This document shows positions 2,187 through 56,797 of a stretch of 64,000 bases of DNA, piece by piece. The stretch covers positions 6,331-70,330 of the forward strand of contig DAITOK010000005.1 in NCBI GenBank assembly GCA_036834125.1, read 5' to 3'. The position numbers and the translations under genes are program-made. The notes under the pieces were generated by a model. It had not been told where the DNA came from and did not search any database. It saw only the letters and a program-made list of their open reading frames with translations. Position 1 is the first letter of the stretch. Each line of letters begins with the position of its first letter. This DNA comes from Chloroflexota bacterium. GTDB taxonomy: Bacteria; Chloroflexota; Dehalococcoidia; GIF9; AB-539-J10.

Positions 2187-3464
2187 TTAGGCTTTGAGAG
2201 CTTTCTCTCCTCTTACCACAGAACTACCACTGGGAATGGAGAGAGTGGAGAAATCACTCTCTTTTACCCAAGAATCAATCTTGCAGTTGTGTCCGACTCT
2301 CAGTCCCGGAGGTAATCTTGCCCCCTTGCCAATTACTGTGATGCCAGAATTCAAATGCTCAGGTTCGTCTTTGTTGGCAGTATAGTCGTCGCCACAACCA
2401 ATCCAGCAGCCTGGGCCAATGTAACACTCTTTATCAATGATAGAACGCTGCACAACAGCATCCCGGCCGATGACAGTATCGTGAAAGATTATGGAATCTA
2501 TCACGTGTGCTCCTTCTTCGACGTAGACGTGGGGGGAGAGCACGGAATTAAACACGTGACCGTTTACAATGCAGCCATTACTGACAAGGCTTCTCGAAAT
2601 CTGGGCATTCGGTCCCAGTTTTACTGGAGGCATGTCTAGGGAAAGCGTCCTAACTTCGGTCTCCGGGTCATAGAGATTGAATGGGGGCAGATCTACAATC
2701 AGGTCCATATGGGCTTGCCAATAGGCTTCGATTGTACCAACATCACGCCAGTAACCTTGATACTTGTAACCATAAATTTGGCGTTTGCCTATTGCATCTG
2801 GTATAACCTGGCTACCAAAGTCCTGTAGACCGCGACAGTGGGCATCTTCGAGAACGTTGAGCAGAACATCTCTGTTAAAGACATAAATGCCCATCGAGGC
2901 TAGATTGCTCTTGGGTTGAGGTGGCTTTTCCTCGAAGTCAATCACTTTACAGTTGTCATCCAGACTCACAATACCAAAGCGATGGGCTTCGTTCCAGGGC
3001 ACCTCAGTGACTCCAATAGTTATATCAGCTTTCTGTTGGCAATGAAACTTAATCATCTCTTCGTAACGCATGGTATAGACGTGGTCTCCTGAAAGAATGA
3101 GAATTTTATCAGCGCGGCTGTCCTCTATGAAACGCAGGTTGTGGTAAACAGCATCGGCAGTGCCCTTATACCAGTGCATCTCTCCGTTGGTGCTGACAAA
3201 AGGGTAAAGTAGAGTGATACCTCCGATAGTACGGTCTAGATCCCAGGGCCTACCCACGCCGATGTGGCGCGCCAGGGAGCGTGGATTGTATTGTGGTATA
3301 ACTGCTACTCTGGTGATGCCAGAGTTGACGCAGTTGCTCAGGGTAAAGTCAATGATACGGTACTTACCAGCGAAGGGGACTGCAGGCTTAGCACGCTCCT
3401 GTGCCAGCACACTCAGTCTTTTTCCTTCTCCGCCGGCGAGGATGACTGCCAATACTCTTTTCAT
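2187..3464 (-). CDS. glgC: Glucose-1-phosphate adenylyltransferase
   Basis: 425-aa ORF with ATG start. N-terminus [20 protein letters not shown] (nucleotidyltransferase GGxGxRL motif) and a C-terminal left-handed beta-helix. Confidence 0.9.
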
Positions 3465-3568
3465 CGGGACGTTGCCTTACCTAATCAACTTATAAATTTT
3501 GTGGGTAAGACTATTTTAACTATCAGTAGGCAACTTGTCTAATTGCAGCCGGTAATTGGCTTCTATTG

Positions 3569-5782
3569 CTAGCTCGATTTCCCTCTACTAGCTGCTGGTA
3601 TATACATTCGCTTGATATATTCCTTAAGCATCCGTCGGGTGCAGAATATGGGAGAAATTGAGGCTATTGCCTCTTTGACCATGCGCATCCAACCGCGAGG
3701 CACACCATCTCTATCCCGTTGGTAGTAAAGGGGTACAATTTCCTGCTCTAGGAGACGGTAAAGTGCCTCGGCATCCGAGCTATCTTCCTTCCCTGGGTCA
3801 TACGCTTCAATGTCGTCTCCGATAACCCAGCCATTCATGCCATTATAGCCTTCATACCACCAGCCATCTCTAACGCTGAGATGAAGGACACCGTTCACTG
3901 TTGCCTTCATACCACTGGTGCCACAAGCCTCTTGTAAGCGGCGAGGCGTGTTCAGCCATACGTCTACTCCTTGAACCAGATAACGAGCCATATGCATATC
4001 ATAATCTTCTACAAAGGCTATTCGGCCTTGGAATTCAGGCTGTGTACTCAGGGTATATACCTCATGGAGGAGTTGCTTTGAAGGAAAGTCGGCGGGATGA
4101 GACTTTCCGGCAAAGATGATTTGGACAGGCTGCCATCTATCGGTGACAATGCGCTTAAGACGTTCAACGTCGTGGAAAATCAATGCTGGTCGCTTATATT
4201 CAGTGAATCGGCGGACAAAACCGATAGTGAGAACATTGGGATTAAGTAGAGCACCCATAGCCAATATCTGCCTGGCTCGGCACTCACGTTCAGTAGCGCA
4301 TTGGCGTGCTCGCTCTATCATGGCACCGATAAGCTTGCGTTTAAGGGCCTGATGCACTTCCCAAAGCTCCTTGTCTGGGATTTTTAGTACAAGTTCCCGA
4401 AGGCTAGTATCATCGTACCTTTGGAATATATCCTGGCCTAGGTATTTCTCATAGATACGGCTCATCTCCGGAGCAACCCAAGTCGGCACATGAATCCCGT
4501 TAGTAATATGTGAGATGGGGACCTCCTCTTCTTTAAGTTTGGGCCAGAGTCCGTGCCACATCCTTCTCGTGATTTTTCCATGAATCTGGCTAACAGCGTT
4601 ACGATGGTCAGACATTCTTAAGGCAAATACAGTCATATTGAAGGCTTGGTCATATGTGCCACTTTGTCGTCCTAGCTCTAGAAATGTTTCTCGGTTTATG
4701 CCCATAGATTCCCAGTAGCTAGAAAGATATTTCTCGACAAGCGTGATAGGAAAGACATCGTGTCCGGCAGGGGTTGGCGTATGGGTAGTGAATACGGTGG
4801 TTGCTCTAACTCTGTGCAGAGCTTCGGTGAAGCTCGCGCCTTTTTCTATTTCTGTCCTGAGACGCTCCAGCATCATGAAGGCGCTGTGGCCTTCGTTGGC
4901 ATGCCACACAGAAGGATTGATGCCTAGTGTCTGTAAGACACGCACTCCGCCAACTCCTAGTACAATTTCTTGCTGGATACGCTGCTCCTGATCAGCGGTG
5001 TAGAGGCGAGCGCATAACTGTCTATCTTGAAAGCTGTTTCCCTCAACGTCGCAACAGAGAAGGTAGAGGTTGGTCCGCCCTACGCGTACTTGCCAGACAC
5101 CAATGTAGAAAGGTCTACCGCCCAGTTCCGTCTTAACTAACGGTCTGCACCACTTAGAGTGCGGAACTGGATTGATAGGAGTGATGGGCGCTTCATCGAA
5201 ATTTAATTGTTCATAAATTTCCTCTTGCCAGCCGTCAGCGGAAATATGTTGATGGAAGTATCCTTGGGGATACATGAAGCCAACACCGACCAGAGGCAGC
5301 CCCAAATCGCTCGCTTCTTTACAGACATCGCCCGCCAGGATGCCCAGACCGCCGGCATAGAGAGGGAGAGAGTTGTGTATGGCAAATTCCATAGAGAAGT
5401 AGGCAACAGGACCAGGCAAAGCCTCAGGGTATTTTGTAGCAAACCAAGTATTCTTTGCTTTAATGTCGGCGTCAAAATCTGCCATCACGGAATCGTACAA
5501 ACTAAGAAACGCAGGGTCTTTCGCCGCTGCTTCTAGCCTGTCAGGACTGATTTCGTGAAGCTCTTTGACCGGGTTGTGTCCCCCTAAGTGCCATAGTGGA
5601 TAATCCAGAGCCCGGAACAAAGCTCGGGCTTGAGGGTGCCAGCTCCACCACAGATTGTTAGCTAGTTCCTCTAACCTGTTTACGCGCTCAGGGAGCTTCA
5701 GTGGTGATGACATAGTACCATTGCCAGGCTTTTGTCTCAGATTTCCTTTGCTCGCTACGAAAGCATCGTCAACTTTTGTCAA
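3569..5782 (-). CDS. glgP: Alpha-glucan (glycogen/maltodextrin) phosphorylase, GT35, short ~715-aa form
   Basis: 737-aa ORF. Conserved GT35/PLP-enzyme blocks: EGHSAF, TNGIH, FTTHTP, GKSHPAD. The track start at 5782 is a TTG; the first ATG is at 5713 (MSSPLKLPERVNRLEELANNLWWSWHP), so the start is uncertain. Confidence 0.85.
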   Translation of the reverse strand: MTKVDDAFVASKGNLRQKPGNGTMSSPLKLPERVNRLEELANNLWWSWHPQARALFRALDYPLWHLGGHNPVKELHEISPDRLEAAAKDPAFLSLYDSVMADFDADIKAKNTWFATKYPEALPGPVAYFSMEFAIHNSLPLYAGGLGILAGDVCKEASDLGLPLVGVGFMYPQGYFHQHISADGWQEEIYEQLNFDEAPITPINPVPHSKWCRPLVKTELGGRPFYIGVWQVRVGRTNLYLLCCDVEGNSFQDRQLCARLYTADQEQRIQQEIVLGVGGVRVLQTLGINPSVWHANEGHSAFMMLERLRTEIEKGASFTEALHRVRATTVFTTHTPTPAGHDVFPITLVEKYLSSYWESMGINRETFLELGRQSGTYDQAFNMTVFALRMSDHRNAVSQIHGKITRRMWHGLWPKLKEEEVPISHITNGIHVPTWVAPEMSRIYEKYLGQDIFQRYDDTSLRELVLKIPDKELWEVHQALKRKLIGAMIERARQCATERECRARQILAMGALLNPNVLTIGFVRRFTEYKRPALIFHDVERLKRIVTDRWQPVQIIFAGKSHPADFPSKQLLHEVYTLSTQPEFQGRIAFVEDYDMHMARYLVQGVDVWLNTPRRLQEACGTSGMKATVNGVLHLSVRDGWWYEGYNGMNGWVIGDDIEAYDPGKEDSSDAEALYRLLEQEIVPLYYQRDRDGVPRGWMRMVKEAIASISPIFCTRRMLKEYIKRMYIPAASRGKSS

Positions 5783-5937: not shown

Positions 5938-6246
5938 TTAGCTTAGAGCAACTTTTGTGATTTCTCTCGGTCTTCTCCAGCCCAGTGCTGCGAGGAGGTC
6001 TCCTACTGCGGTTTCCCCGTGTCCAGGGTGGCGAAGGGTGAGGTCGGGATTGACTCGATAATAGTTGCGTCTTCCCTGTCGTTTCTTGGTAATATAGCCA
6101 GCTTCTTGTAGGTCAGCAATTATCTTACGCGCTGTTCTTTCAGTAATGCCAATGGCGTTAGCTAGCTCTCGAGCAGTAATCCGAGGGTGTCGAGCAATGC
6201 AACTTAATACCAGAGCGTGGTTGGTAAGGAACATCCATTCTGGCAT
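5938..6246 (-). CDS. Small winged-helix HTH transcriptional regulator
   Basis: HTH segment ITARELANAIGITERTARKIIADLQEAGYITKKRQGRRNYYRV. ATG at 6246 (MPEWMFLT...) is preceded by GAGGTGG 5 nt upstream; the track start 6258 has no RBS. Confidence 0.6.
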   Translation of the reverse strand: MPEWMFLTNHALVLSCIARHPRITARELANAIGITERTARKIIADLQEAGYITKKRQGRRNYYRVNPDLTLRHPGHGETAVGDLLAALGWRRPREITKVALS

Positions 6247-51036: not shown

Positions 51037-51381
51037 CTAGTTCTTTAGTTTGTTCCAGACCCTTGAAATCTTTAGTTTAAGGTCAGGTAAATCCTCTTTA
51101 ATAATCAGCCAGACTCTTTTTAAATTGGCACCAAAGTATTCATGAGTGAGAATATCTCTCATTCCGGCGATCTTTTTCCAAGGTATGTCGGCATATTGAC
51201 CTTTAAAATTTTCATCCATCTTTTTGGCTGCTTCGCCGATGATTTCGAGCCTTCTCAGAACTGCATCTTGAACCCGGCGTGTCTTGTAAAATTTCTCTTC
51301 TGTGAGTGCCTGCATGTATTCCTCTATCGCTTAAATGCTTTCTAGCATGTCCTTTACATACAACCTCATATCCCGTTTCAT
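51037..51381 (-). pseudogene. hepT: HepT-family (DUF86/HEPN) toxin gene with an in-frame TAA at codon 17
   Basis: From ATG 51381: MKRDMRLYVKDMLESI-TAA (51333-51331)-AIEEYMQALTEEKF...RDILTHEY. The last block is an Rx4-6H HEPN motif. The stop sits where K/E/Q is expected in the ILEAIxKIEEY consensus. The track reports only the re-start ORF 51037-51315. Confidence 0.7.
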
Positions 51382-51670
51382 AGGATGACCACTTCTTCGT
51401 TCAGTATCCTCTCCCTGATGAGCGGTTTAATTGTGCTGTATTCCACCAAATCAATACTTTTGCCCAACGCCTCCTCGAGCTCAATCTTTAAAGCGGCAAA
51501 ATCAAGCAGACTCAGGTCGTTGTTGATTTCTACCAAAATATCTATATCACTATCAGCTGTAGCCTCACCTTTCGTAACTGAGCCAAAAGGGCGGCTCTCT
51601 CGACACCATGCCGTTTGAGTATGGGAATAGCTTTGTTTTTTATTTCGTGTATTTGCTTCTGCGAAATCAT
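51378..51670 (-). pseudogene. mnt: MNT (minimal nucleotidyltransferase) antitoxin gene with a -1 frameshift in an A4/T4 run (51585-51588)
   Basis: From ATG 51670 (GAGG RBS): MISQKQIHEIKNKAIPILKRHGVERAAL, then a stop in that frame after 14 more codons. The adjacent frame continues GSVTKGEATADSDIDILVEINNDLSLLDFAALKIELEEALGKSIDLVEYSTIKPLIRERILNEEVVIL-TGA. That is the GS...DxD NTase motif, and the TGA overlaps the HepT ATG (ATGA). Confidence 0.7.
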
Positions 51671-51758
51671 TTACCGCCTCGAACGAAAAATTGCCTATAG
51701 GACGCCCTGACTGCTATTTCCTTCTAACATTTTGTATTTCATGCTCTTGTTATAGCAC

Positions 51759-53114
51759 TTATCCTTCGCCGCATTCAAGTTTATAGTCGCAGTAGGAGCA
51801 CATCCAGGAAGGGCATTTGGGAAGCTGGGAAGCCGCTTCGGCTTTTGCCAGAAGGTCAAGCCTGCGCAGGGCTTCGTCCTTAATGTCGCCGAGTTTTCTG
51901 AAGATCACATCGTAGACCATCAGCTTGGCATCTTCCCTGGGGACATTGACATAATATACAACGAGTCTGCCCTGATTGTGATTGGTCAGAGCACAATCAA
52001 ACGCCAGTCGCAGGAAATAATGAGGGAAGGCTCTGGGCAAGCGTTCTCTCTCGACAAGCGAGGAGAACTTGGGGTTGCGCAGGATGGTGGGCGAATTCTG
52101 CCAGACCTGCACCAAATCGGACAGTGGCAAATGCCGCACAGGAATCCTCTGCACACCACCAGGGGCATCATAATGCAACGAATCGTGGAGGGCGTCCTGG
52201 AAACCTCGCTCCTCCAGAGAACGGAGATACTCCTGTTTTTCTTCGCGGATTTCATCCGCGGGACCCGTTCTTCCCAGCTCCAGTCGCTCAAAATAGGCTT
52301 TGCGGGGGAAGACGATATCATTGATGCCAAATAGTGGAGAGGGCTGAGCCTCAGCTATCTTGCCGAGCAGTTGCTGGCAGGTCTTGCTATCAAGGTAAAT
52401 CTCCCCGGCCAGATCGGCTATTTCATGTAAAGCTGGCACCGTTGTGGTGGCGCAGTCGCATACTTGTGAGTAATCACACTGCCTGCCAAACCAGGGGCAA
52501 GCTGGCAGATTGCTCGGGTCGTTGGCGACTAGCGCCTGTACCAGGAGGTCTCGCCTCCGCCGCATTTCTTTACGGATTGCTTCTAAATCGGGAAAGCTAA
52601 TATGGTAGACAACCAGTGGTGGAGTGGAAGAGAGTTGCTCAGAAGCGCGCTGATAGATGATGATTTCCCCCTCGTGGCAATTGACCATGGCACAATACAT
52701 ACCCAGTTGCTCAACATAAACTGGTCGGTACTGAAGCAGGTCCTTATCACCCAGGGGTGTCGAGGTGGTCTTAACCTCTACCGGGATCTTCTCATAAATA
52801 TCAATTTTGCCTACGATGCCCTCGACTTCCACAAACTGCTCCAGGTATTCCTCGCTGGATACTGCCGAGCCGAATGTCTTGTGAAAGCCTTCGCCCGCCC
52901 ACATGAGCTGCCGTTTCTCTAGAGGTGGCGTGATTTCAGGATACTTCCTCTTGAAGTAAGCCTGCTTGAGATTGAGCAAGTCAGTTACTGAGATGCGGTA
53001 AGGCGGTCGGCGCGTTTTCAGGCTGTGCATCAAGGCGTCTTTCACTGAGCGGTTAGCTTCGATTCGGGAAACATAAGCTGAGATGTCAAACTCTGCCATG
53101 GGTGTCTGTCTCAT
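51759..53114 (-). CDS. Tandem Cas4/RecB-family PD-(D/E)xK nuclease with Fe-S Cys clusters
   Basis: N-half: Cas4-like N-terminus ISVTDLLNLKQAYFKRKY; GKIDIYEKIPVEVKTT (D...ExK); YVEQLGMY (QxxxY); CPWFGRQCDYSQVCDC. C-half: degenerate core plus CPSWMCSYCDYKLEC. ATG 53114 overlaps the TGA of the upstream DUF763 gene (ATGA). Confidence 0.6.
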   Translation of the reverse strand: MRQTPMAEFDISAYVSRIEANRSVKDALMHSLKTRRPPYRISVTDLLNLKQAYFKRKYPEITPPLEKRQLMWAGEGFHKTFGSAVSSEEYLEQFVEVEGIVGKIDIYEKIPVEVKTTSTPLGDKDLLQYRPVYVEQLGMYCAMVNCHEGEIIIYQRASEQLSSTPPLVVYHISFPDLEAIRKEMRRRRDLLVQALVANDPSNLPACPWFGRQCDYSQVCDCATTTVPALHEIADLAGEIYLDSKTCQQLLGKIAEAQPSPLFGINDIVFPRKAYFERLELGRTGPADEIREEKQEYLRSLEERGFQDALHDSLHYDAPGGVQRIPVRHLPLSDLVQVWQNSPTILRNPKFSSLVERERLPRAFPHYFLRLAFDCALTNHNQGRLVVYYVNVPREDAKLMVYDVIFRKLGDIKDEALRRLDLLAKAEAASQLPKCPSWMCSYCDYKLECGEG

Positions 53115-54196
53115 TGCCACGCCCTCAATCGTCTGAAGGCTTCGAGCTTTTCCTTATCGCCAATTTTGGTTTTCTCCAGTGCCTGCGCCAGGAACTGGAT
53201 GCTGCTGTCGTAGGTCTTCCTGTCCACAGGGTAGGGATACCCATCCTTGCCGCCGTGGGCAAAGCTGTAGCTCGCAGGGTCACGAAGGCTGACCGGTGTG
53301 TCATAAATGAGTTCAGAAATGAGGCTCAGGGCTCGCAAGGTTTTTGGTCCTACACCCTCCAGGGCGAGCAAAGATTCAAAGTTCTCAGGCTTGCGCTCGT
53401 AGGTGGTGACGAAAATCTTGCTCAGCCTGTCGGGATGAATATCTTCCAGGCTGATATGAGCCCGCCGGGGCAAGTTTAGGGTCTTGAGCTTACTTAACTC
53501 GTTGACGATTTTCTCGGGCTTCTCCTCGCTGGCAATACGGGTGATGACATCCCTGGCTTGGGCGCTCTCCGAAGCTACCAGATTCAATGCCTCACCTCTA
53601 GCCTGTGTGCAGATAGCTGCCTCTGGCTCGCAGACGAAGTCCGTGACACTCTCTCCCAGCCAGTGGTAGCGCCGGGCATAGCGGTTGCTCTCGTTCATAC
53701 CCTGCTGGACCACTGCCCAGTAGCCATCTTTAGTGAAGAAGAAGCTGTGGTGATAGAGCTGGTAGCCATCCTGAAGGGCGGAATTATCCACCTTGGCGGA
53801 CATCCGACTAGCATAGACTAGCGATGAAGGATTTATCTTGAGCAAGTGCCCGGCATTCTCTATCTCCTGAGGCGTTTTTCGAGAGGTTTTGCCTTTGCCA
53901 CCCGCCACAAACAAGCCCAGCTCCTTTTCCAGCCCTCGGAGTCCCTCTTTCAGTGCTCCACAGACGGTGGTGGTCACGCCGCTCGAATGCCAGTCATAGC
54001 CTAAAACGCAACCGAAAGCCTGAAACCAGTAGGGGTCGGATAGCCGCCTCAGCATCTCCTGGACGCCAAATTCCATCATGGTGGCGATGGCGATCTCCCG
54101 GGCAAGCTGGCACATCCGCCCGAATAGCCACGGTGGCACCTTGCCATAATGCAGAGGCAGATTAGCAACCCCCGTCCTCTGTCCTGAGCTAGCCAT
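53111..54196 (-). CDS. DUF763-like protein with helix-hairpin-helix motif
   Basis: LLALEGVGPKTLRALSLISELIY (HhH), plus HGGKDGYPYPVDRKTYD, which I recall as DUF763-type. First ATG at 54196; the track TTG start is at 54274. Confidence 0.5.
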   Translation of the reverse strand: MASSGQRTGVANLPLHYGKVPPWLFGRMCQLAREIAIATMMEFGVQEMLRRLSDPYWFQAFGCVLGYDWHSSGVTTTVCGALKEGLRGLEKELGLFVAGGKGKTSRKTPQEIENAGHLLKINPSSLVYASRMSAKVDNSALQDGYQLYHHSFFFTKDGYWAVVQQGMNESNRYARRYHWLGESVTDFVCEPEAAICTQARGEALNLVASESAQARDVITRIASEEKPEKIVNELSKLKTLNLPRRAHISLEDIHPDRLSKIFVTTYERKPENFESLLALEGVGPKTLRALSLISELIYDTPVSLRDPASYSFAHGGKDGYPYPVDRKTYDSSIQFLAQALEKTKIGDKEKLEAFRRLRAWQ

Positions 54197-54297
54197 CTTG
54201 TATCTCGGTGTATTATACACCAGCGTTTGCCCTAATAAGCATGGCAGTTTTGACAGTAGCTGCCTAAAACCCAAATTTCGTGTATACTAGAACTAAA

Positions 54298-55965
54298 ATG
54301 TCATCAGGTAGTGGAATCTCTGGACAAGACCTGCGCGTGAGTAGTGTAACCGAATTCATTAGGCGGAAGGAAGCGGTTTGTTGCCCGATATGCCGTGCAC
54401 TTATTAGGAACAACTTGGGTCAGCATATTCGTGATACTCACGGAGAAGAAGACTATAGACAAGCCATACTGAGAGCGAAAGAGTGTGGAGTGTCTGACTC
54501 GGAGATTGGTTCACTGTTCGGAGTCGCCTTCAAGCAACTGGAGAAGATCATTACCGACGCATACGGTGTTAACGTCTCGGCTCTCGAGAAACCTAAGGCC
54601 GTGAAGTTCTGGACCCCCGAGAACTTTGTAGAGGAGACCACAAGTGTATGGAGTTTTAAACAGAGGGGAAATTGGGCTACTCATAGTGGGAGATATAGAG
54701 GGAACTGGTCACCGTATATCCCGCGCAACGTGATACTGAAATATTCGCGGCCCGGCGATGTTGTGCTGGACTACTTTGTTGGGGGAGGGACGACAGCGGT
54801 TGAGGCAAAGTTACTGGGTCGGCAATGCATAGCGAGTGATATTAATCCCGCGTGCATTCGCCTGACTCTGGAAAACCTAGATTTCCAGCCGCCAAACGTT
54901 TTGTTCAGAGAGTTTCCCATCTATGAGCCGAAAGTCTTTGTGGCGGATGCACGGAATTTATCTCACATATCTGATAACAGCATTGACCTAATTTGTGCGC
55001 ACCCGCCGTATGCCAGCATAATAAATTATAGCTCCGGGGTTGAAGGCGATTTGTCGAACCTAAGAGTAGACGACTTCCTGAAAGAGATGAAAAAGGTAGC
55101 AAAAGAGAGCTATAGAGTTCTTAAACCTGGAGGAAAGTGTGCAATACTCATCGGGGATACGAGGCAGCGAAAGCACGTTGTTCCCATAGGCTTTCAGACG
55201 ATCAACGTCTTTCTGGAATCAAGATTCAAATTAAAGGAATTGGTAATTAAACGGCAGCATAATTGTAAGACCACCGGGTTTTGGTATGCCAAGAGCATAA
55301 GAAATAACTTCCTCCTTCTCGCTCACGAGTATCTACCGATTTTTGAAAAGCCGAGGCCTTCGCAGCCGCCGTTGCTGGCAAGGGAGGAAATGCTCCGTTA
55401 CGGTGAAGTTTCATCGGAATTAAAGAAACTTTCCCTCAAGAGGAAACTCCCGGAGTTGGAGACCACGACGGTATGGCTTTTGCCCGACGACGACTTTGAA
55501 AAACGCCTAAACAAGAATGTAGTTGACAGGTATTCAGGTGGGCGCGGGTACTTGACTGTGGATTTTGTTTCTCACTCCCGGAGCGAAGGACGTTTCCATG
55601 AACGACAGGGACAAAAGAGCAGAGGCTTACTATTTATTAAATCATCATTCTTGGCTGATAGTCCTTCGCGTCTAGATGTTGAATCCTACCTAGAGAAAAT
55701 ACAAACAGTCATAAAGCAGGAATTGTCTGGAATAAACAAAGGCGGTTTTCTTGTAATCCAAGCGCAGGATGTAAGGTTAAACGGATATATAGAGCCCGTT
55801 GCCAAGAAGATAGTCGATTCAATTGCTTTTGATGACTTGTGGTTAAAGGAGATCGTAGTTGTAACCCAAGGTCAGAAACAACGGGATTCTACGAAAGACA
55901 TGCCGTCAACCGAAGGCTTGAGCATAACACATCAGTATCTCGTTATTTATGAAAAAGTGTTGTAG
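54298..55965 (+). CDS. Atypical SAM-dependent amino-methyltransferase (PF01555-like blocks in gamma-type order) with N-terminal zinc finger and 230-aa C-terminal extension
   Basis: Zinc finger CCPICRALIRNNLGQHIRDTHG. Motif X/I block HSGRYRGNWSPYIPRNVILKYSRPGDVVLDYFVGGGTTAVEAKLLGRQCIASDINP. Motif IV is DLICAHPPY, not D/N/S-PPY. Then RVLKPGGKCAILIGD. ATG at 54298; the track GTG start is at 54280. Confidence 0.65.
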   Translation: MSSGSGISGQDLRVSSVTEFIRRKEAVCCPICRALIRNNLGQHIRDTHGEEDYRQAILRAKECGVSDSEIGSLFGVAFKQLEKIITDAYGVNVSALEKPKAVKFWTPENFVEETTSVWSFKQRGNWATHSGRYRGNWSPYIPRNVILKYSRPGDVVLDYFVGGGTTAVEAKLLGRQCIASDINPACIRLTLENLDFQPPNVLFREFPIYEPKVFVADARNLSHISDNSIDLICAHPPYASIINYSSGVEGDLSNLRVDDFLKEMKKVAKESYRVLKPGGKCAILIGDTRQRKHVVPIGFQTINVFLESRFKLKELVIKRQHNCKTTGFWYAKSIRNNFLLLAHEYLPIFEKPRPSQPPLLAREEMLRYGEVSSELKKLSLKRKLPELETTTVWLLPDDDFEKRLNKNVVDRYSGGRGYLTVDFVSHSRSEGRFHERQGQKSRGLLFIKSSFLADSPSRLDVESYLEKIQTVIKQELSGINKGGFLVIQAQDVRLNGYIEPVAKKIVDSIAFDDLWLKEIVVVTQGQKQRDSTKDMPSTEGLSITHQYLVIYEKVL

Positions 55966-56037
55966 GAGAACAGGAGGTACGAAACTGACGATGCATAGAG
56001 CGCAAGCAAGAGAAAGCAAAGAGGGGTGGTATATAAG

Positions 56038-56175
56038 ATGCCCATATGTAAAGCACGACTGTGCCTGGATGAATGTCCCGTTCCAGGCGGAATGGGCAAT
56101 AACATAGAAACGTGCTGTGAATGTGGTGCGGATATACAGGTTCAACCAATTCGCAGTGACCGAGGAATGAAATAA
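56038..56175 (+). CDS. 45-aa Cys-rich micro-protein (6 Cys), coupled to the downstream gene
   Basis: MPICKARLCLDECPVPGGMGNNIETCCECGADIQVQPIRSDRGMK. Its TAA overlaps the next ATG (TAATG). Not in the ORF track because it is under 60 aa. Confidence 0.4.
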   Translation: MPICKARLCLDECPVPGGMGNNIETCCECGADIQVQPIRSDRGMK

Positions 56176-56744
56176 TGTTTGAAATAGGAGATAAATGGCG
56201 GGGGAAGGTGATCTTTGACCGGGTAACCTTATCGAATGGATGGGTGATACTGAAAACGGAAAACCACAAAAGTGCAAGGGACTTCAAAGTCCGAACCGTA
56301 ACATCGCTGCAACCGGTGCACTCGTACACACCGAAGCATGCCCACTTTGCGATCGATTTCTATGGTAAGGTGTGTTTCAACGAGGCAAAAGCACTGAGTG
56401 TTCTGGAAGCCATTGTTGATGTTTGGCATAATGCAAAGGTAGAGCAAGTGTTAAGGACATATGAAAGTTCAACGCAAGGACCGCCAGGCTACAGTTTGGA
56501 GTACATCCTGTACGCACTAAACTGGATACTTGAGCAAGAGGATATTAATTTCAAGGGGCGTCCCGGCGGGAAGCAGCGGGAGTTAGACGAGAGATGCAGG
56601 AAGCAGAATATTGTTGTTCCGCCAGAAAGGTTGGGCAGCCAACTGGCCATTTCGCTGTTCTGTGATATAGCGAGTGGAACACACCCAGTGCAAGCTCTCC
56701 TGAATGCGAACCTAGACGTGCTACCGCGCCGCCGAACGCGGTAG
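56175..56744 (+). CDS. Hypothetical 189-aa protein
   Basis: ATG start; no domain recognised (MFEIGDKWRGKVIFDRVTLSNGWVILKTENHKSARDFKVRTV...). Confidence 0.5.
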   Translation: MFEIGDKWRGKVIFDRVTLSNGWVILKTENHKSARDFKVRTVTSLQPVHSYTPKHAHFAIDFYGKVCFNEAKALSVLEAIVDVWHNAKVEQVLRTYESSTQGPPGYSLEYILYALNWILEQEDINFKGRPGGKQRELDERCRKQNIVVPPERLGSQLAISLFCDIASGTHPVQALLNANLDVLPRRRTR

Positions 56745-56797
56745 TCTCCTCCTCTGCGTGTACACTCAGTCTTTGGTTGCTTCAGTACGGGTCGTAA

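Follow-up and report, generated by a model that had tools for sequence, protein, structure and literature searches.

A tandem-duplicated Cas4-like nuclease with a degenerate second domain and its lineage-restricted DUF763 neighbor in Dehalococcoidia

On the minus strand of a 64-kb stretch of a Dehalococcoidia metagenome-assembled genome (MAG), hereafter the window, a DUF763 gene (53111-54196) lies directly upstream of a gene for a Cas4-like nuclease built of two tandem domains (51759-53114). Identical or near-identical proteins carry the Dehalococcoidia label in NCBI. The locus raises the question of whether the two proteins work together or lie side by side for other reasons. An earlier note on this DNA had described the two same-strand open reading frames (ORFs), which we recovered, both on the minus strand, and had taken their ATGA overlap to imply stoichiometric co-expression. 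The explanation we favor, to which we assign a probability of a little over 60%, is that the nuclease represents an autonomous, vertically inherited family of stand-alone, pseudo-dimeric Cas4-like enzymes, with DUF763 as a lineage-specific neighbor.

The nuclease gene can be read as 451 amino acids (aa) from an ATG at 53114 to a stop codon at 51761-51759; the identical protein in databases is called as 446 aa, i.e., from the conserved start, the ATG at 53099-53097. All features of the nuclease given below are on the minus strand. When 1.84 billion cluster representatives were searched exhaustively with the nuclease by HMMER, a small family was recovered, with 390 representatives (50% identity) reaching E ≤ 0.001 and 85 reaching E ≤ 1e-30; members are mostly ~440-470 aa long and align end to end with the window protein. 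The nuclease is a whole-domain tandem duplication, homologous over the full length of its halves, which align to each other by BLASTP (E = 2e-12) and by hhalign (probability 99.9, E = 2.1e-35, 204 columns). Residues 101-222 match PDDEXK_1 (PF12705) at 30.7 bits against a gathering score of 22, a match that covers only the C-terminal half of that model. An AF2 model computed from an alignment of 56 diverse family members had a mean predicted local distance difference test (pLDDT) of 87.4 and a predicted template modeling score (pTM) of 0.82, and shows a helix-helix-three-strand-helix-two-strand-helix topology present twice. When this model was searched against the PDB by Foldseek, the best match was the Cas4 protein SSO0001 (4ic1; E = 8.6e-6, probability 1.00, TM score on target 0.57), followed by MGME1, lambda exonuclease, and RecE. 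The family profile also matched Cas4 among PDB chains, weakly but with the catalytic motifs aligned (4r5q, E = 0.0013; 4ic1, E = 0.007). Profile matches, structure prediction, and fold searches thus support a Cas4/RecB-like PD-(D/E)xK fold with a predicted active N-terminal half and a degenerate C-terminal half, and the tandem-duplicated Cas4/RecB-family nuclease proposed in the earlier note is borne out.

Conservation within the same 56-member alignment separates the two halves. The N-half (residues 40-225, 52440-52997) is a PD-(D/E)xK domain predicted to be catalytically competent, and seven of its residues are invariant in all 56 members: H78 (52881-52883), E92 (52839-52841), D105 (52800-52802), E113 (52776-52778), K115 (52770-52772), Q136 (52707-52709), and Y140 (52695-52697). 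The D...ExK and QxxxY motifs noticed at first reading are among these invariant residues. In the C-half (residues 263-451, 51762-52328), a degenerate copy predicted to be non-catalytic, the counterparts of these residues are replaced: ExK, for instance, has become LxR, and the tyrosine of QxxxY arginine. Because mean pairwise identity is 0.32 in the C-half compared to 0.16 in the linker (and 0.39 in the N-half), the C-half appears to be still under constraint.

Both halves retain a cysteine cluster across the alignment, as had been claimed. In the N-half, the cluster CPWFGRQCDYSQVCDC (52452-52499) contains C206, conserved in 98% of members, and C213, C219, and C221, conserved in 100%; C141 (52692-52694), conserved in 91%, is a candidate alternative ligand. 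In the C-half cluster CPSWMCSYCDYKLEC (51771-51815), which comprises C434, C439, C442, and C448, the first, third, and fourth of these are conserved in 100% of members, and C374 (51993-51995) and/or C450 are added in 54 of 56, giving at least four cysteines. The spacing of the window C-half, C-x4-C-x2-C-x5-C, is the same as in the tail of single-domain relatives of 218-232 aa (LPxC-x4-C-x2-C-x5-C). A split form of the tandem protein was sought, and no separate C-half-like gene was found after the single-domain relatives. One of these, of 232 aa, is encoded on a virus-like metagenome contig (SRR33154765_5487; locus L104, 3717-4699), where it adjoins a SprT-like gene and lies near genes for ribonucleotide reductase and a DUF1599 protein and near many small ORFs without annotation. 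We infer that the cysteine clusters bind a metal or an iron-sulfur (Fe-S) cluster.

Since the nearest solved structures and profiles are Cas4 proteins, the nuclease could be a bona fide Cas4 that serves CRISPR spacer acquisition together with cas1-cas2 encoded elsewhere in the genome. The helix motif VTDLL.PR.AY of the nuclease does align to VTDLVRCPRR of Cas4, so the "Cas4-type N-terminus" of the earlier note holds as far as the helix is concerned, but the Cas4 cysteine ligand is missing from it: the "RCPRR" of Cas4 is aligned to "LKQAY / PRrAY" in the nuclease family. In Cas4, AddB, and ACE proteins, an N-terminal cysteine is the fourth ligand of the Fe-S "iron staple" (PMC12094033, PMC5704561), the other three being C-terminal (CX2CX5C) in Cas4 (PMC5704561, PMC12094033). 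There is no cysteine in the N-terminal helix of the nuclease, and its conserved cysteines are C141 and those of the C-terminal clusters only. The four-cysteine cluster that had been noted is present, but it does not follow the Cas4/AddB pattern of one N-terminal cysteine plus CX2CX5C. The nuclease scores 17.8 bits against the Cas4 equivalog TIGR00372, which has a cut-off of 65, and the tandem architecture is not described in a survey of Cas4 proteins, a term search of which returned no mention of duplication (PMC5704561). No tandem-repeat array was detected in the 64-kb window, where Rfam and tRNA scans also gave no matches, and those related loci that carry annotation showed no cas genes. We give a role in CRISPR adaptation next to no credence. 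Solo-Cas4 proteins encoded outside CRISPR loci are common and already described (PMC5704561, PMC12501428), and so the suggestion that such a setting is unusual was overstated.

The mechanism we propose for the stand-alone nuclease divides the labor between its two copies. The N-terminal copy would be the metal-dependent catalytic unit, acting through the H, E, D, ExK, and QxxxY residues. The C-terminal copy would have lost catalysis but been kept by selection, most likely as a fixed structural partner in an intramolecular pseudo-dimer, and may help to bind or thread DNA in a manner akin to the inactive nuclease-like domains in RecC. An Fe-S cluster (or Zn) is probably bound as a structural staple at the C-terminal four-cysteine site of each copy, with a ligand arrangement that would be unlike that of Cas4 and AddB for want of the N-terminal cysteine. 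In this view the gene is vertically inherited in a housekeeping neighborhood. The task of the enzyme would most likely be to trim DNA ends, flaps, or single-stranded DNA during repair or recombination, and not to serve CRISPR adaptation or a dedicated defense system. DUF763 would be a separate, widely conserved gene with a helix-hairpin-helix (HhH)-like motif that precedes the nuclease by chance in a single clade of Dehalococcoidia.

Whether the gene junction argues for a shared function depends first on whether the overlap is real. The junction (53097-53114, minus strand) was aligned between the window and six relatives in which it is also tight; loci outside the window are numbered here with the prefix L. 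In the window, ATGA at 53114-53111 overlaps the DUF763 stop codon (TGA, 53113-53111), and the ATG at 53099-53097 lies 11 nt past that stop. The ATG of the overlap arises by a synonymous CAG to CAA change in the last DUF763 codon (Gln), found only in this genome. The relatives have CAG at this position, followed by TGA, TAA, or TAG, a purine-rich spacer of 11-19 nt, and an ATG or GTG that aligns with the window start at 53099; the GTG that overlaps the stop at the equivalent site in L005, L007, and L019 is not in frame with the nuclease. Because the CAG to CAA change is unique to this genome and the conserved start lies 15 nt downstream, the overlap is best regarded as a one-genome accident: the letters are there, but the feature does not carry the meaning that had been placed on it. 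The spacer of the tight-junction relatives contains Shine-Dalgarno-like AAGGGG or AAGAGG, and the window genes are in effect 11 nt apart, close enough for co-transcription.

A perfect TATAAT hexamer, a putative -10 box read directly from the sequence, lies at 54212-54217 (minus strand), 15 nt upstream of the DUF763 start; the consensus scan left it unscored owing to its poor -35 hexamer. Where relatives have a longer spacer between DUF763 and the nuclease, a TATAAT-like box usually precedes the nuclease start by ~10-15 nt. A formal promoter scan gave a full -35/-10 match in L026 (TTGACC-18-TAATAT) and no match in the L025 spacer.

To follow the pairing across genomes, one genome per species (GTDB) was scanned with a 12-sequence nuclease profile, which returned 80 loci, and the window proteins were placed on related loci by tblastn. 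In the Dehalococcoidia clade to which the window belongs, whose nucleases are 65-82% identical, DUF763 lies upstream of the nuclease on the same strand in ~30 of ~45 loci with enough upstream sequence, and three further contigs found from the DUF763 side also carry the pair. Synteny extends to the entire block in tens of Dehalococcoidia MAGs, in the order ABC transporter, DUF763, nuclease, CvpA, thioredoxin, TatD; in the window the neighbors are CvpA, thioredoxin, TatD, an ABC transporter, and RtcA. Of 32 DUF763-positive loci in which the gap between DUF763 and the nuclease was measured, 8 have one of 23 nt or less, 22 have one of 90-260 nt, and the other 2 have one of 0.8-3.6 kb. In ~12 of the ~45 informative loci the nuclease is intact and DUF763 is either absent (L015, L016, L017, L029, L031, L034, L041, and L054) or reduced to a remnant of 34-144 aa directly upstream (L013, L021, L033, and L037). 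In L040, a full-length DUF763 gene (2788-3867) lies 2.1 kb upstream of the nuclease, and an apparent second, partial match (~5873) adjoins it. In L006 (4902-5983), L060 (4787-5870 and 6084-7323), and L059 (6001-7328), DUF763 or the nuclease was matched by tblastn in two overlapping pieces, which could be frameshifts due to assembly error or genuine pseudogenes.

Beyond this clade the association was not recovered. Two Chloroflexota loci with nucleases 54-59% identical had no DUF763 in the upstream sequence available, and DUF763 was found within 6 kb of the nuclease in 0 of 22 distant loci, which came from Thermoplasmata, other Methanobacteriota, Armatimonadota, SAR202, and one distant member of the Dehalococcoidia. 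In Thermoplasmata, a conserved operon partner was sought in the tables of called genes, and the neighbors were metabolic only: an FAD-dependent flavoprotein of the L-aspartate oxidase/succinate dehydrogenase type, acyl-CoA dehydrogenase, an acetyltransferase, and PRPP synthase. From the other side, none of the examined DUF763 loci of seven non-Dehalococcoidia organisms had a nuclease gene beside DUF763. The gene stands alone in Sinorhizobium, Rhizobium, Legionella, Haladaptatus, a nanohaloarchaeon, and another haloarchaeal contig. A single clade holds the pairing, which reaches no further back than the synteny of the block itself. It is thus shared beyond this genome, though only within a lineage whose entire block is syntenic, and the conserved pairing that the earlier note suggested looking for in other genomes does not extend beyond closely related, syntenic ones.

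The DUF763 partner is itself well defined as a family member. The gene runs from an ATG at 54196 to the TGA at 53113-53111 and encodes 361 aa; a 100% identical protein is present in NCBI, and relatives at 82-88% identity begin at the same methionine. The upstream protein is a typical full-length member of DUF763 (PF05559/COG1415), as had been proposed: it matches profile positions 1-319 of 319 at 455.2 bits (cut-off 35.5, E = 1.6e-136) and shares 43-51% identity with rhizobial, Legionella, and haloarchaeal members of a family that is especially widespread in archaea. Many residues are invariant, in the sets DWHSSG, VVQQGMN, ARRYHW, and AHGGKDG. The earlier description of an "HhH protein" stands only in part. 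The HhH-like motif LLALEGVGPKTLRA (residues 269-289, 53330-53392, minus strand) matches Pfam HHH (PF00633) at 18.8 bits (E = 0.0014), below the 24-bit cut-off, but its G-x-G hairpin (G281 and G283) is invariant in 58 sequences and is flanked by helices 273-277 and 284-296 in an AF2 model.

That model is of moderate quality (pLDDT 74). Two segments that rank among the best conserved, residues 1-18 (54143-54196) and 306-324 (53225-53281), are its least confident parts, with a pLDDT below 50, and carry G.A.LPLH.G and DPA..S.AHGGKDG.P.PV, respectively; this is the pattern expected of loops that become ordered only around a ligand, cofactor, or partner. Searches of PDB chains with the DUF763 sequence and family profile found no solved relative, and no credible fold match emerged when the model was compared to PDB structures by Foldseek (best E = 0.78). 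In the literature on DUF763, PF05559, or COG1415 we found a 2005 domain census only and no functional study. On plasmid pBAL398.3 of Rhodopseudomonas sp. BAL398 (L001, 5387-7257), the end of alkB, encoding an alpha-ketoglutarate-dependent dioxygenase, overlaps the DUF763 start by 1 nt, the sole tight DUF763 gene linkage seen outside the Dehalococcoidia and a possible hint of DNA alkylation repair. MGMT-like, dCTP deaminase, and TatD genes lie near DUF763 in the nanohaloarchaeon. We treat such sporadic repair-gene neighbors (AlkB, MGMT-like, TatD) as hints only.

These observations can be set against the idea that the pair is a genuine two-gene DNA-repair or end-processing module restricted to one Dehalococcoidia lineage, in which the HhH-bearing DUF763 protein would bind DNA or a lesion and the nuclease would cut or resect it, the genes being co-transcribed at least where they lie 11-19 nt apart. 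The same-strand adjacency in most informative clade loci, the tight junction in the window and eight relatives, and the repair hints for DUF763 elsewhere would all fit such a module, which we consider unlikely but still deserving of a serious hearing. It does not readily account for the loci in which the nuclease persists after DUF763 has been deleted or has decayed, for the TATAAT-like box that precedes the nuclease in most loci, or for an adjacency that goes no deeper than block synteny and is missing from every distant nuclease locus and every non-Dehalococcoidia DUF763 locus examined. With an accidental overlap, spacers of 90-260 nt in 22 of 32 loci, loss of DUF763, and no distant pairing, the step from stoichiometric co-expression to a functional module is not supported. 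In a more specific form of this idea, DUF763, which is widespread in archaea, has no solved-fold match, and carries an invariant, enzyme-like set of motifs, would have been recruited in Dehalococcoidia to recognize DNA or process lesions as the partner of a pseudo-dimeric, double-metal-cluster Cas4-like nuclease, which would amount to an unrecognized two-component DNA repair pathway. We think such recruitment quite unlikely. If it were true, the adjacency would be the first functional handle on DUF763.

Four points weigh against our preferred explanation of an autonomous nuclease with a chance neighbor. The first is that gaps of more than 500 nt occur in only 2 of 32 loci at the DUF763-nuclease junction, compared to 6 of 12 on the ABC transporter side and 27 of 42 on the CvpA side, and a junction so seldom broken between two insertion hot spots fits some selection for keeping the genes together. 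Second, both genes stand out in composition. GC content at third codon positions (GC3) is 0.669 in DUF763 and 0.593 in the nuclease, locally the highest (0.43-0.59 in twelve neighbors; overall GC of the window 0.477), as is the overall GC of the two genes in their neighborhood; a high GC3 common to both may reflect a shared history and, like the seldom broken junction, also counts in favor of the module. Third, the cysteine sites could hold Zn instead of Fe-S. Finally, a housekeeping neighborhood does not prove a housekeeping function. The nuclease is 43-44% identical to some archaeal homologs (L061 and L062) and 33-34% identical to other Chloroflexota homologs (L066 and L069). Taken with the GC and GC3 peak, the closer archaeal homologs suggest a past inter-domain transfer.

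The genes that flank the pair bear on another possibility, that it belongs to an anti-phage defense or restriction-modification (RM) island together with a divergent methyltransferase and a 189-aa ORF. The methyltransferase, an N6/N4 DNA methyltransferase of 561 aa (54280-55965, plus strand), abuts the DUF763 promoter region and matches the PADLOC type II methyltransferase PDLC03376 strongly (E = 3.3e-94); it has a Zn-finger-like N-terminus and a C-terminal region of ~200 aa that has no family assignment. The 189-aa ORF (56175-56744, plus strand) has no family match and no homolog in related loci, and shares with the methyltransferase a variable slot bounded by the ABC transporter and DUF763. 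The two may be an orphan methyltransferase or a small RM cassette. On the other side, between the nuclease and cvpA, lies a degenerate MNT-HepT toxin-antitoxin system (51037-51670, minus strand), in which HepT is only 92 aa long, matching profile positions 14-119 of 120, and the nucleotidyltransferase antitoxin upstream of it is apparently split into two short ORFs at 51542-51670 and 51378-51536. L026 encodes a 79% identical HepT in the corresponding position (5968-6243). Both flanks of the pair (51316-51758 and 54197-56797 in the window) are insertion hot spots in the clade: across related loci L004 to L060, the distance from the nuclease to CvpA ranges from 41 to 4996 nt and that from the ABC transporter to DUF763 from 112 to 2444 nt. 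Their contents vary: L094 has a metallo-beta-lactamase-fold gene and an Exo_endo_phos gene there, and HepT is found in the window and in L026.

These variable flanks, the strong methyltransferase match, the closeness of that gene to the DUF763 promoter region, and the degenerate toxin-antitoxin system are what recommend a defense island. Of ~50 loci, though, just one more (L056, 59% identity) has the methyltransferase next to DUF763, and the pair shows the conservation and synteny of core genes. In searches of PADLOC-DB 2.0, DUF763 had no match and the nuclease only marginal matches to Cas4 and DruK (E~1e-3); a significant match was obtained for the neighboring methyltransferase alone, as a generic type II enzyme. 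The methyltransferase was dropped as a candidate partner, since its recurrence in L056 alone marks it as a variable insertion, and we regard a defense or RM role for the pair as highly improbable.

The case for vertical inheritance of the nuclease in a housekeeping setting draws on the syntenic block, the metabolic neighbors in Thermoplasmata, and the lack of both a strong PADLOC match and a repeat array. Should the tandem architecture work as we propose, it would be a compact, single-chain pair of an active and an inactivated nuclease, and would indicate that a Cas4-type metal "staple" can be rebuilt from C-terminal cysteines alone, which is relevant to the evolution and oligomerization of Cas4-like enzymes. 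As the family is common to Dehalococcoidia and Thermoplasmata MAGs, it may be an unrecognized housekeeping repair nuclease of uncultured lineages. For DUF763, which has thousands of homologs in databases, the locus gives only a weak, lineage-specific clue to function; the window protein differs from other members solely in its lineage-specific position beside the nuclease.

Compared to known systems, the nuclease comes closest to Cas4 (COG1468/DUF83, e.g., SSO0001 [4ic1], Pcal_0546 [4r5q], and the M. mazei Solo-Cas4), its best match by structure and by profile. It shares with Cas4 a RecB-like PD-(D/E)xK core with H/E, D, ExK, and QxxxY motifs, the N-terminal helix motif VTDLL.PR..Y, and a cysteine-rich C-terminal tail; its location outside CRISPR loci and its apparent vertical inheritance are features of solo-Cas4 as well (PMC5704561). 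Characterized Cas4 and solo-Cas4 proteins are single-domain and homo-oligomeric (PMC12501428), whereas the nuclease consists of two tandem domains, one of them predicted to be inactive, and falls far under the Cas4 equivalog cut-off. Unlike Cas4 and AddB, whose iron staple is covered in PMC12094033, it lacks the N-terminal cysteine, and all of its candidate ligands are C-terminal, spaced C-x6-C-x5-C-x-C in the N-half and C-x4-C-x2-C-x5-C or C-x7-C-x5-C-x-C in the C-half. This combination of active and inactive tandem domains with C-terminal-only cysteine ligands, found in Dehalococcoidia and Thermoplasmata, appears to be undescribed so far.

A second likeness is to the Cas4-like nucleases of viruses, such as C287 of Sulfolobus virus Ragged Hills and lipothrixvirus and rudivirus nucleases. 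Residues 49-220 of the N-half match PHROG 1706, annotated "CRISPR/Cas system associated" (E = 1.3e-12), and the best matches in BFVD are Cas4-like nucleases of archaeal viruses (TM score ~0.5-0.64 on target); one single-domain relative of the family lies, as noted, on a virus-like contig. The viral proteins are single-domain, whereas the window gene is chromosomal, syntenic, and duplicated. In the RecBCD and AddAB complexes, an inactive nuclease-like domain pairs with an active RecB-family nuclease, and the Fe-S cluster of AddB is structural. The nuclease resembles RecC and AddB in bringing active and inactivated PD-(D/E)xK domains together and in the concept of a structural Fe-S cluster, a likeness of principle only, as the RecBCD chains among its Foldseek matches are weak (E > 0.1). 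Unlike RecC and AddB, it has no helicase domains, carries both nuclease domains in one 450-aa chain, and differs in cysteine topology.

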